Shown here: positions 57,249-58,058 of the stretch, piece by piece
How positions within the stretch are numbered: the stretch's first letter is position 1
Layout: each line of letters starts with the position of its first letter
Origin: Escherichia coli
GTDB lineage: Bacteria > Pseudomonadota > Gammaproteobacteria > Enterobacterales > Enterobacteriaceae
DNA length: 64,000 bases
Direction: 5' to 3' (one strand)
Assembly: GCF_003334815.1 (NCBI RefSeq)
Contig: NZ_QOWO01000003.1
Position numbers and translations under genes: made by a program
The notes under the pieces: generated by a model
Told to the model about the DNA's origin: nothing
What the model saw: the letters and a program-made list of their open reading frames with translations, nothing else
Database searches by the model: none

Positions 57249-57665
57249 ATGTGGTATCAAAAGACGCTCACGCTTAGCGCCAAATCTCGTGGGTTTCATC
57301 TGGTAACGGATGAAATTCTGAATCAGCTGGCTGATATGCCGCGCGTTAACATCGGCTTACTGCATCTGTTGCTGCAACATACCTCCGCCTCTCTGACACT
57401 TAATGAGAACTGCGATCCCACCGTACGCCACGACATGGAGCGTTTTTTCCTCCGCACCGTTCCCGACAACGGAAATTATGAGCATGACTATGAGGGAGCA
57501 GACGATATGCCTTCTCATATCAAATCCTCAATGCTGGGAACATCGCTTGTATTGCCGGTGCATAAAGGGCGTATTCAGACCGGCACCTGGCAAGGCATTT
57601 GGCTGGGGGAACATCGCATCCACGGCGGATCGCGTCGCATCATCGCGACACTACAAGGGGAGTAA
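57249..57665 (+). CDS. yjbQ: UPF0047-family protein YjbQ (138 aa)
   Basis: Product [54 protein letters not shown]... Confidence 0.9.
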
Positions 57666-57668
57666 AAA

Positions 57669-58025
57669 ATGACCATTTCGGAGTTGCTACAATATTGCAT
57701 GGCAAAACCAGGCGCAGAACAGAGCGTGCATAATGACTGGAAAGCGACGCAGATCAAAGTGGAAGATGTACTGTTTGCGATGGTGAAAGAAGTAGAAAAT
57801 CGCCCAGCTGTTTCGCTGAAAACCAGCCCGGAGCTGGCGGAGCTGCTACGTCAGCAGCACAGCGATGTGCGTCCAAGCCGCCATCTGAATAAAGCGCACT
57901 GGAGCACCGTGTATCTCGACGGTTCGCTGCCAGATTCGCAAATCTATTATCTGGTGGATGCGTCTTATCAGCAGGCGGTGAATTTACTGCCGGAAGAAAA
58001 ACGTAAATTGCTGGTGCAACTCTGA
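57669..58025 (+). CDS. yjbR: Uncharacterized protein YjbR (118 aa)
   Basis: ORF starting 4 nt after the yjbQ stop (probable operon); MmcQ/YjbR-like small protein. Confidence 0.88.
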   Translation: MTISELLQYCMAKPGAEQSVHNDWKATQIKVEDVLFAMVKEVENRPAVSLKTSPELAELLRQQHSDVRPSRHLNKAHWSTVYLDGSLPDSQIYYLVDASYQQAVNLLPEEKRKLLVQL

Positions 58026-58027
58026 AA

Positions 58028-58058
58028 GGAAAAGGCCGCTCAGAAAGCGGCCTTAACG
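58028..58058. terminator. Bidirectional terminator between yjbR and uvrA
   Basis: Hairpin AAAGGCCGCT-cagaa-AGCGGCCTT between convergent genes. Confidence 0.8.

Follow-up and report, generated by a model that had tools for sequence, protein, structure and literature searches.

Gene Content and Layout of the yjbQ-yjbR Locus

The window, a 64,000-nt stretch of Escherichia coli contig NZ_QOWO01000003.1, carries at 57249-58025 the yjbQ-yjbR operon of E. coli K-12, an already annotated and ordinary locus whose two genes are both poorly characterised. The locus is 100% identical to that of strain MG1655, where the annotated order is aphA-yjbQ-yjbR-uvrA and the counterparts in NC_000913.3 are b4056 (yjbQ) and b4057 (yjbR). 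Sequence, protein lengths, and position relative to aphA and uvrA are all the same as in the K-12 pair called 'yjbQR' in PMC4918353, with no difference. It was found in 5426 of the 5426 complete E. coli genomes searched, with at least 80% query coverage in 5420 of them. The features of the region are:

56425..57138, + strand: aphA coding sequence (acid phosphatase), the upstream neighbour, outside the operon
57137..57181, + strand: aphA intrinsic terminator, a hairpin (57137-57175) followed by U7, which parts aphA transcription from yjbQR
57190..57218, + strand: conserved promoter-like block upstream of yjbQ, with putative hexamers
57237..57242, + strand: yjbQ Shine-Dalgarno sequence AAGGAG, 6 nt ahead of the ATG, as read from the sequence
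57249..57665, + strand: yjbQ (b4056), ATG start, 138 aa, UPF0047/YjbQ family (from the ORF list)
57655..57662, + strand: yjbR Shine-Dalgarno sequence AAGGGGAG, within the final yjbQ codons (Q-G-E-stop)
57669..58025, + strand: yjbR (b4057), ATG start, 118 aa, MmcQ/YjbR family (PF04237), 'double-wing' fold
58032..58054, no strand assigned: GC-rich hairpin with a 9-10 bp stem (z about -3.6) within the 34 nt that separate yjbR from the convergent uvrA
58060..60882, - strand: uvrA, the convergent downstream neighbour and, across Enterobacterales, the more constant neighbour of yjbR

The yjbQ stop codon TAA (57663-57665) is followed by a 3-nt spacer, AAA (57666-57668), and the yjbR ATG begins at 57669, the fourth base past the stop, just as the original prediction had placed it. 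The compact operon that it described also stands: the genes lie on the same strand, separated by these three nucleotides, and share a reading frame (ORFs 420 nt apart). Its gene identities and family assignments held as well, with the full K-12 match and matches to TIGR00149, PF01894, and PF04237. Upstream, the annotated aphA start (MRKITQ...) lies at 56425 (4269414 in NC_000913.3); the ORF list begins this gene at an upstream TTG, 56185.

Two Proteins from Widespread Families of Poorly Defined Function

YjbQ matched the TIGR00149 profile over its whole length (residues 4-138 on positions 1-132 of 132; 180.3 bits, cut-off 67.75) and PF01894 with an E-value of 2.6e-36. The family motifs HT(S/T)A-x-(L/I)T-x-NEN-x-DP, later His residues, and GTWQGI are present and align with PDB homologues; in YjbQ they read H44-T-S-A-x-L-T-x-N-E-N-x-D-P, H79, H90, G112-x-W-Q-G, and E121-H-R. 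Across 48 YjbQ sequences, H44, S46, A47, N52, E53, N54, D56, H79, H90, K92, S94, G112, W114, Q115, G116, E121, H122, and R123 were invariant. YjbQ has the fold of the solved UPF0047 structures, which come from structural genomics (1VMH/1XBF, 1VE0, 1VMF, 2CU5, 2P6C, 2P6H, 1VMJ, and 1VPH); among structural relatives of this fold, none with a characterised function was found. A PHROGs search returned a match of an unannotated family to the C-terminal half of YjbQ and nothing else.

Two activities have been reported for YjbQ (PMC3010111, PMC3020362): it works at a low level as a thiamin phosphate synthase, and in multicopy it suppresses a pdxB deletion. The two papers trace the thiamin phosphate synthase activity to Morett 2008 and call it weak and probably not physiological; the product name 'secondary thiamine-phosphate synthase' stems from it. 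The literature thus bears out the earlier statement that only weak, possibly moonlighting activities are on record. We infer an enzymatic role for YjbQ, as a small oligomer, probably assisted by a metal, that acts on small phosphorylated metabolites.

YjbR matched PF04237 over residues 11-101 (E 2.9e-21), and its residues 1-118 align with PDB 2FKI, the identical 'Protein yjbR' (E 2.5e-75). Other structures of the MmcQ/YjbR family (PF04237, formerly DUF419) are 2A1V and 2KFP/3H9X, and the 'double-wing' fold of the family has been likened to the C-terminal domain of phage T4 MotA. Five residues, K51, R61, N74, K75, and W78, were invariant across 26 diverse PF04237 members. YjbR thus carries the invariant basic LNKxHW motif and the basic residues of the face proposed to bind DNA. 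E. coli YjbR and a few of its closest relatives carry xxWxAxQ(I/V)KV, whereas most of the PF04237 family has a DYPFG motif instead. Against the NCBIfam equivalog NF007603 (PRK10250, 'MmcQ/YjbR family DNA-binding protein') YjbR scored 43.8 bits, below the cut-off of 183, and it is therefore not an orthologue of that protein. DNA binding by the YjbR family is a prediction from structural similarity (PMC7641849, PMC3424535), on the strength of which YjbR may bind nucleic acid. Among publications on UPF0047/PF01894, on PF04237/DUF419/MmcQ, on yjbQR, and on the structural-genomics targets, we found no functional study beyond PMC3010111, PMC3020362, PMC4918353, PMC7641849, PMC3424535, and bioRxiv 10.64898/2026.06.26.734693.

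Probable Signals for Co-transcription and Translational Coupling

The promoter-like block ahead of yjbQ consists of a -35-like TTTATC (57190-57195), a 17-nt spacer, and a -10-like CAAACT (57213-57218). The latter sits within an invariant TGCTGCAnACT (57208-57218) preceded by a TTTAYC-like hexamer; in an alignment of seven Enterobacteriaceae the invariant letters are T57208, G57209, G57212, C57213, A57214, A57216, C57217, and T57218. The window contains the block once, where 0.11 occurrences would be expected. Locus L090, of Erwiniaceae type, has it too, and a separate alignment shows it upstream of yjbR in Citrobacter and Pseudocitrobacter that have no yjbQ. A consensus promoter scan did not pick up this block. 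A sigma-54 promoter for yjbQR, an idea taken from a Pseudomonas RpoN report, was dropped on inspection by eye, the -24 position being TT instead of GG. An Rfam scan of 55000-59000 (E≤1) returned no match, including no TPP riboswitch despite the link to thiamin.

The GGA of the yjbQ Shine-Dalgarno sequence was invariant in the alignment of the seven Enterobacteriaceae. At the yjbR ribosome-binding site GGGGAG occupies 57657-57662, and a junction of the form CAAGGGGA(A/G)T(A/G)A followed by a 2-6 nt spacer was present in 10 of 12 distinct pair-bearing loci; Citrobacter lacking yjbQ keep the yjbR junction as AAGGGGAATAAAAATG. Between yjbQ and yjbR the terminator scan gave no convincing site on the + strand. 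The layout is accordingly that of a coupled bicistronic operon, with one strand, a short spacer, no internal terminator, and an embedded Shine-Dalgarno sequence. PMC4918353 handles 'yjbQR' as one transcription unit, and its supplements give FPKM values of 369 and 305 for yjbQ and yjbR in the wild type; in the knock-out the two genes shift by -0.52 and -0.66 log2 units. Together, the shared strand and 3-nt spacer, the embedded ribosome-binding site, the conserved block, and the similar RNA-seq values lead us to infer that yjbQ and yjbR are co-transcribed from that block and that yjbR, because its Shine-Dalgarno sequence lies inside the last yjbQ codons, is translationally coupled to yjbQ.

Regulation by GadE was considered as a clue to function and set aside. 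Its ChIP-exo peak has a signal-to-noise ratio of 1.01, the lowest in the table, and the expression shift is only about 0.5-0.65 log2; single knock-outs of yjbQ or yjbR have no glutamate-dependent acid-resistance phenotype.

Selection for making the two proteins in stoichiometric amounts could explain why the 2-6 nt spacing and the embedded Shine-Dalgarno sequence are well maintained where both genes exist. These features, along with the similar RNA levels and responses of the two genes in PMC4918353, speak for a reading in which YjbQ and YjbR act together, either joined in a complex or at two steps of a single process, with the coupling enforcing their co-production. One version would have YjbQ produce or take away a small molecule or a base modification, and YjbR detect it on nucleic acid. 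We consider joint action unlikely in light of the genomic comparisons below. If it were true, it would offer a first way into the physiology of two widespread families without known function.

Hairpins Flanking the Operon

The pair had been described as bracketed by strong terminators (57148-57181 and 58028-58058), a description that applies to its upstream side. There the aphA hairpin folds with a dG of -23.3 kcal/mol (z -4.92), which none of 200 shuffled sequences equalled, and constitutes a canonical strong terminator; some aligned relatives have a hairpin and T-run at the same position with a different sequence. The downstream hairpin is oriented for uvrA. Its tail reads AACGAUUACAG on the + strand, with no U-tract, and UUUUCCUUUC, a U-tract, on the - strand. 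Since the U-tract exists on the - strand only, the hairpin fits uvrA and not the yjbQR transcript, for which 58032-58054 does not supply the GC-rich hairpin plus + strand U-tract of an intrinsic terminator. By canonical sequence criteria it is the putative uvrA terminator, possibly bidirectional at best. Six related species have no yjbR-uvrA hairpin, their stop codons lying 0-6 nt apart. The region as a whole contains six terminator-like sites, compared to 2.5 +/- 1.7 expected from shuffles.

Distribution of the Gene Pair across Bacteria

A YjbR-anchored genome scan yielded at least 80 species loci among the matches listed, with about 15 Enterobacterales species; its peptide pattern skips some family members, Rouxiella among them. 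Flanks of 5 kb were covered for loci from the scan and of 3-4 kb for loci that were looked up. Among the matches listed, 9 of the 14 Enterobacterales loci (at least 64% identity) had yjbQ immediately ahead of yjbR, and a YjbQ gene was present in none of the 66 remaining YjbR loci (5-kb flanks). Further distant YjbR homologues, from Enterobacillus and loci L006, P0282, and P0290, likewise had no YjbQ gene within 3-4 kb, so that overall YjbQ was near 0 of about 70 distant homologues (flanks of 3-5 kb). Approached from the other gene, a PF04237 neighbour was found at 0 of 4 non-enterobacterial YjbQ loci (Bacterioplanes, Methylomonas, Saccharophagus, and an Arsukibacterium-like contig), which have four different neighbourhoods. 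Adjacency was seen only in Enterobacteriaceae, Erwiniaceae, and Rouxiella among the loci examined, and in no distant lineage.

Within Enterobacterales, the constant feature is a single syntenic locus, tyrB-[aphA]-[yjbQ]-yjbR-uvrA, in which the bracketed genes are optional. In 5 of the 14 sampled loci (L008, L009, L011, L017, and L020; ±5 kb) yjbQ is missing and yjbR is kept, the order being tyrB-yjbR-uvrA in L020 and aphA-yjbR-uvrA in the other four; the two genes are thus not gained and lost jointly at this locus. L008, L009, and L011 retain both the upstream block and the yjbR ribosome-binding junction. Species with the order aphA-yjbR-uvrA and a conserved block but no yjbQ are Citrobacter werkmanii, Citrobacter sp. 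FP75, and Pseudocitrobacter; a different Citrobacter lineage still has yjbQ. Enterobacter sp. Ag1 has the same yjbQ-less order, and here the upstream block is not conserved.

In Pseudomonas aeruginosa, yjbQ is co-transcribed with sutA in a glnK-amtB setting, and SutA is not a PF04237 protein (bioRxiv 10.64898/2026.06.26.734693). The two arrangements are alike in that yjbQ is the first of two genes and the product of the second is a small regulator associated with nucleic acid or RNAP. In both settings yjbQ is dispensable: some Pseudomonads have no yjbQ ORF yet possess the regulatory sequences (bioRxiv 10.64898/2026.06.26.734693), which mirrors the yjbQ-less Citrobacter loci.

The original prediction took the tight coupling as a sign of shared function and named a lack of co-occurrence outside close relatives as the result that would speak against it. 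The co-occurrence check, within flanks of 3-5 kb, gave essentially that result. The proposed shared function is not borne out by a pair that is adjacent at one Enterobacterales locus, has lost yjbQ from 5 of 14 samples of that locus, is absent from all distant YjbR and YjbQ loci examined, and has yjbQ joined to sutA instead in Pseudomonas.

Each of these observations, including retention of the upstream block in three of the yjbQ-less loci, also argues against joint action of YjbQ and YjbR. So does family size: a word-based search found at least 7,992 clusters for YjbQ versus 357 for YjbR, making YjbQ much more widespread than the E. coli-type YjbR clade. There were no natural YjbQ-YjbR fusions among two-domain matches, and an AF2 model of YjbQ-(GGGGS)6-YjbR reached a pTM of 0.45 with a poorly confident YjbQ half, from a shallow 44-row paired+unpaired alignment with YjbQ as monomer and without PAE or contacts. 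The model shows no confident docking; as a weak test, it lends a complex no support but does not refute one. Apparent fusions were rejected on inspection: P0003 (PF01894 + PF04237) is a frameshifted read-through, P0128 (TetR_N + PF01894) a chimera, and P0001 and P0005 3'-extended artefacts.

Rouxiella (Yersiniaceae) is the one point that favours a link between the genes. In its yjbQ-yjbR pair 87 nt separate the two genes, the region upstream is non-homologous, and a TetR-family gene is divergently oriented. Within UPF0047, yjbR follows yjbQ only here and in the Enterobacteriaceae/Erwiniaceae lineage, whose YjbQ proteins stand apart on a long branch of their own (about 58-60% identity to other gammaproteobacterial YjbQ, which are about 77% identical to one another). 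Rouxiella YjbQ has a mean identity of 74% to non-enterobacterial YjbQ versus 60% to Enterobacteriaceae YjbQ, and neighbour-joining placed it outside the Enterobacteriaceae clade, grouping with it in 9 of 100 bootstraps. Because its YjbQ is nearer to non-enterobacterial YjbQ and does not group with Enterobacteriaceae, the Rouxiella pair may be a second, independent juxtaposition, which would count in favour of joint action. The pair also survives local rearrangement, an alcohol-dehydrogenase-family (ADH) gene lying downstream of it in L090 and upstream in Rouxiella. A specific proposal is that the pair was assembled twice, in the Enterobacteriaceae/Erwiniaceae ancestor and in Rouxiella, and that YjbQ, as a UPF0047 enzyme, acts on a nucleotide- or cofactor-like molecule or a nucleic-acid modification that YjbR binds or reports; we regard it as quite unlikely.

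Two small, tightly coupled ORFs (138 and 118 aa) might also suggest a two-gene addiction or defence module of toxin-antitoxin type, and some MmcQ/YjbR-EVE fusion proteins do lie near defence islands (PMC7641849). That reading is effectively refuted. The locus belongs to the core genome, with a fixed syntenic position in every E. coli genome searched; PADLOC models match neither protein; the YjbQ gene is solitary in all four non-enterobacterial loci examined; yjbQ and yjbR can each be deleted singly; and natural loss of yjbQ has left yjbR in place.

A Probable Lineage-Specific Operon of Two Independent Genes

On balance, yjbQ-yjbR is probably a lineage-specific operon whose two genes are otherwise independent, rather than a conserved functional module. 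The stable unit would be the tyrB-to-uvrA interval of Enterobacterales, with aphA and yjbQ as optional inserts; in some lineages yjbQ would have been cleanly removed, and yjbR would now sit downstream of the same block. Since yjbQ can be lost in this way and yjbR kept, the coupling most likely reflects the use of one promoter and one ribosome-loading site in common, rather than a pathway or complex. As the pair occurs together only in close relatives of E. coli, its tight packing is weak evidence of a joint job.

The comparison removes the main reason to read the juxtaposition as informative, and the E. coli operon is unfit as guilt-by-association evidence for the function of either UPF0047 or PF04237. 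Species that naturally have yjbR behind the same block without yjbQ are ready-made experimental controls.

Genomic Neighbours of yjbR

Between tyrB and uvrA the constant gene is yjbR, not yjbQ. In a further reading, YjbR is tied to the convergent uvrA, for example as a DNA-binding protein acting on damaged or cross-linked DNA, with yjbQ as a passenger. MmcQ, which gave the YjbR family its name, is encoded in the mitomycin C gene cluster. All Enterobacteriaceae loci sampled, as well as those of Yersinia and Budvicia, have yjbR adjoining uvrA, the two stop codons being 0-6 nt apart in several species; the L006 homologue (42% identity) has uvrA about 1.2 kb away, and DNA binding is the property predicted for YjbR (PMC7641849, PMC3424535). 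A tie to uvrA is nonetheless very unlikely. Convergent genes are not co-transcribed, and the association is restricted to Enterobacterales, where plain synteny suffices to account for it. In Rouxiella, Enterobacillus, and L003, yjbR is apart from uvrA. Among the matches listed, uvrA lay within 5 kb of 0 of 65 distant loci (L022-L086), and no repair gene recurs beside distant YjbR homologues.

All-against-all clustering of the flanking ORFs of 65 distant YjbR loci placed neither YjbQ nor uvrA among recurrent neighbours. The clustering recovered phylum-level synteny only (SDR, ispG, and metG). A YraN-family gene lies near YjbR homologues in six Bacteroidota/Chlorobiota loci.

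A compact gene pair at a known locus

The yjbQ-yjbR locus is already known: the region matches E. coli K-12 MG1655 with 100% identity and carries the annotation aphA / yjbQ / yjbR / uvrA. Its features are as follows.

57137-57175, + strand: stem of the aphA terminator hairpin (dG -23.3 kcal/mol, z -4.9), with seven U directly after
57190-57218, + strand: conserved upstream block; its TGCTGCAnACT (57208-57218) is invariant in seven Enterobacteriaceae
Six nt ahead of the yjbQ ATG, + strand: Shine-Dalgarno AAGGAG, read from sequence
57249-57665, + strand: yjbQ, ORF of 138 aa (b4056 in NC_000913.3)
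57655-57662, + strand: yjbR Shine-Dalgarno AAGGGGAG, within the last codons of yjbQ
57669-58025, + strand: yjbR, ORF of 118 aa (b4057 in NC_000913.3)
58032-58054, U-rich tail on the - strand: downstream hairpin, in the spacer between the yjbR and uvrA stops

The yjbQ stop (TAA, 57663-57665) is followed by an AAA spacer and the yjbR ATG, and the two ORFs have a common reading frame. The original prediction was therefore correct in starting yjbR 4 nt after the yjbQ stop, and its observation of a compact pair is confirmed. The region was matched in every one of the 5,426 complete E. coli genomes, in 5,420 of them with ≥80% query cover; six fell below that cover, and some genomes held two copies. 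The collection contained 5,434 matching places for the 1-kb region, four of them on plasmids. An Rfam scan of 55000-59000 returned no match. Between tyrB and aphA, a small ORF at 55820-56023 (- strand) corresponds to yjbS (b4621, uncharacterised protein).

Co-occurrence of the YjbQ and YjbR families

Cluster representatives were searched exhaustively for YjbR, and 26 relatives were aligned. With this alignment, a scan covering a single genome for each GTDB species listed at least 80 loci with 5-kb flanks, and YjbQ was sought in all six frames of each with phmmer and tblastn. E. coli-type YjbR (≥64% identity) occurred at 14 of 80 listed loci, all in Enterobacterales. In nine of these, yjbQ lay directly upstream (E. 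albertii, Enterobacter cloacae, Superficieibacter, two further Enterobacteriaceae, a soil MAG, Enterobacter sp. Bisph1, Pantoea stewartii and Erwinia psidii), and in five it was absent from the 5-kb flanks (Citrobacter sp. FP75, C. werkmanii, Pseudocitrobacter faecalis, Enterobacter sp. Ag1 and Yersinia artesiana). The remaining 66 listed loci (Budvicia and 65 from Bacillota, Bacteroidota, Actinomycetota, Chloroflexota, Verrucomicrobiota and other Proteobacteria, none above 42% identity) gave no YjbQ signal within 5-kb flanks, even at tblastn E≤10. YjbQ was also missing from the 3-4 kb flanks of four additional distant YjbR homologues: that of Enterobacillus tribolii, one from a metagenome with 42% identity, P0282 and P0290.

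From the YjbQ side, a PF04237 gene was found at none of four loci (Bacterioplanes, Methylomonas, Saccharophagus and an Arsukibacterium-like contig), which had four different neighbourhoods. The yjbQ gene of Pseudomonas aeruginosa shares a transcript with sutA (bioRxiv 10.64898/2026.06.26.734693). One word-based search returned at least 7,992 YjbQ clusters versus 357 for YjbR. Within the flanks covered, the two families were neighbours only in Enterobacterales. Separately, a distant YjbR homologue is preceded at 6-393 nt by a same-strand YraN-family (UPF0102) gene in six genomes of Bacteroidota/Chlorobiota (loci L033, L038, L052, L078, L080 and L086, about 4230-4995 in each).

One syntenic locus with a variable yjbQ

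With TyrB, AphA and UvrA as synteny anchors, all Enterobacterales cases represented a single locus, tyrB-[aphA]-[yjbQ]-yjbR-[...]-uvrA, whose constant member is yjbR. The order is aphA-yjbR-uvrA in the four yjbQ-less Enterobacteriaceae (L008, L009 and L011 from Citrobacter and Pseudocitrobacter; L017 from Enterobacter) and tyrB-yjbR-uvrA in Yersinia (L020). The aphA-yjbR interval of Citrobacter and Pseudocitrobacter keeps the conserved upstream block, which stands directly upstream of yjbR (about 4930-4975), while junction AAGGGGAATAAAAATG is kept in Citrobacter and has diverged to ACTAAGAGGTATAATATG in Pseudocitrobacter. Because Citrobacter retains both block and junction, the yjbQ ORF has been cleanly excised there, leaving yjbR behind the same signals. 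Another Citrobacter lineage keeps yjbQ, so its presence varies within one genus. The deletion boundaries are common to two Citrobacter loci and differ in the other yjbQ-less loci, which suggests at least three separate losses in Enterobacteriaceae. These natural genomes show directly that yjbR persists at the tyrB-uvrA locus when no yjbQ lies beside it.

Terminators, operon signals and expression

The pair had been described as bracketed by strong terminators, which holds upstream but not downstream. The upstream hairpin, with its U7 tract, is a genuine strong intrinsic terminator of aphA; some aligned relatives have a hairpin and T-run of unrelated sequence at the same position. The downstream hairpin has a + strand tail of AACGAUUACAG and a U-rich UUUUCCUUUC on the - strand, which assigns it to the convergent uvrA as its terminator, bidirectional at most. 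It occupies a 34-nt spacer (58026-58059) in E. coli and is not conserved: in six related Enterobacteriaceae (L010, L011, L012, L014, L015 and L017, near 5354-5376) the yjbR and uvrA stop codons lie 0-6 nt apart without a hairpin. Citrobacter loci carry longer, different stem-loops here, possibly REP-like.

Between the aphA terminator and yjbQ, a TTTA(C/T)C-like hexamer precedes TGCTGCAnACT at 17 nt in the seven Enterobacteriaceae; the block also occurs at an Erwiniaceae-type locus (L090 2940-2975), and the pattern across both families is TTTAYC-N16/17-(TG)CTGCAnACT. The block is probably the operon promoter, with CAAACT as a putative -10-like element, although it went undetected in a scan for consensus promoters. 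At the yjbQ/yjbR boundary, 10 of 12 distinct loci with both genes share a 2-6 nt spacer and the junction CAAGGGGA(A/G)T(A/G)A, the outliers being Enterobacter sp. Bisph1 (111-nt spacer) and Rouxiella sp. WC2420 (87 nt).

In published data "yjbQR" is handled as one transcription unit, with similar RNA levels (FPKM 369 and 305) and similar small drops in a regulator knock-out (PMC4918353 supplements); a GadE ChIP-exo peak given to yjbQR has a signal-to-noise of 1.01 (PMC4918353). The TSS used in that study converts to ~57019, inside aphA, upstream of its terminator and 230 nt before the yjbQ ATG. To reach yjbQ, RNA polymerase starting at that site would need to pass the -23 kcal/mol terminator, and such a start is hard to reconcile with the conserved intergenic block. 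A possible -10 for this TSS is GATAAT at 57004-57009 (region ~56976-57019, aphA 3' end).

We consider it likely that the pair is a lineage-specific, translationally coupled operon: yjbQ and yjbR would share one promoter, with yjbR translation coupled to that of yjbQ, and would otherwise be independent genes.

The Rouxiella pair and a possible functional partnership

In Rouxiella (Yersiniaceae; L001 2720-4354), yjbQ and yjbR lie near tyrB, not near uvrA, beside a divergent TetR-family regulator gene, with ADH, PNPOx-like and GST genes around the pair; the conserved upstream block is absent there. The mean identity of Rouxiella YjbQ is 74% to non-enterobacterial gammaproteobacterial YjbQ versus 60% to Enterobacteriaceae/Erwiniaceae (73-77% to Saccharophagus-/Methylomonas-type YjbQ versus 61% to that of E. 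coli), and neighbour-joining placed it with Enterobacteriaceae/Erwiniaceae in 9 of 100 bootstraps. Either horizontal acquisition or, in Enterobacteriaceae, a raised evolutionary rate could account for this pattern. As weighed on 138-aa proteins and the available sample, there may have been one ancestral pair followed by acceleration of the Enterobacteriaceae branch, or yjbQ may have landed beside yjbR twice; a double landing, if true, would speak modestly for linkage being under selection.

It is mainly Rouxiella and the conserved junction that keep a real YjbQ-YjbR functional partnership in consideration. We regard it as improbable; comparative genomics does not back the shared function that the original prediction drew from tight coupling.

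Protein families and physical association

YjbQ matches TIGR00149 (180.3 bits; cut-off 67.75) and PF01894/UPF0047, with nine PDB homologues from structural genomics, function unknown. Promiscuous activities are reported for it: it has weak thiamin phosphate synthase activity and, in multicopy, rescues a pdxB deletion through a pathway seemingly yielding a phosphorylated keto-acid (PMC3010111, PMC3020362). Most likely, YjbQ is an enzyme that works on phosphorylated small molecules as a small oligomer, possibly with the help of a metal. Its C-terminal half (residues 59-134; window 57423-57650) matches phrog_37337 (unknown function, E 1.8e-15), indicating that some phage genomes encode UPF0047-like proteins.

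YjbR matches PF04237, and its residues 1-118 align with NMR structure 2FKI; it scored 43.8 bits against a cut-off of 183 for the sole NCBIfam equivalog of that family. The basic motif LNKxHW is invariant in the alignment of 26 relatives. Its double-wing fold has been likened to the C-terminal domain of phage T4 MotA and, weakly, to McrB-N, a likeness from which DNA binding is predicted (PMC7641849, PMC3424535).

Neither protein matches PADLOC defence models, and single-gene deletions of yjbQ and yjbR have no glutamate-dependent acid-resistance phenotype. When YjbQ and YjbR were joined by a linker and modelled as one chain in AlphaFold2, using both paired and unpaired alignment rows, the outcome was a weak negative (pTM 0.45; YjbR pLDDT ~80-90, YjbQ poor, docking not confident).

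Among database entries with both Pfam domains we found no natural two-domain protein, only frameshift or chimeric artefacts. Cluster P0003 (57 member sequences) is a frameshifted YjbQ'-YjbR read-through, P0128 a TetR_N-YjbQ chimera, and P0001 and P0005 are 3'-extended YjbR forms from mis-called genes. Many such variants exist in public assemblies and could be mistaken for fusions in automated domain-architecture surveys.
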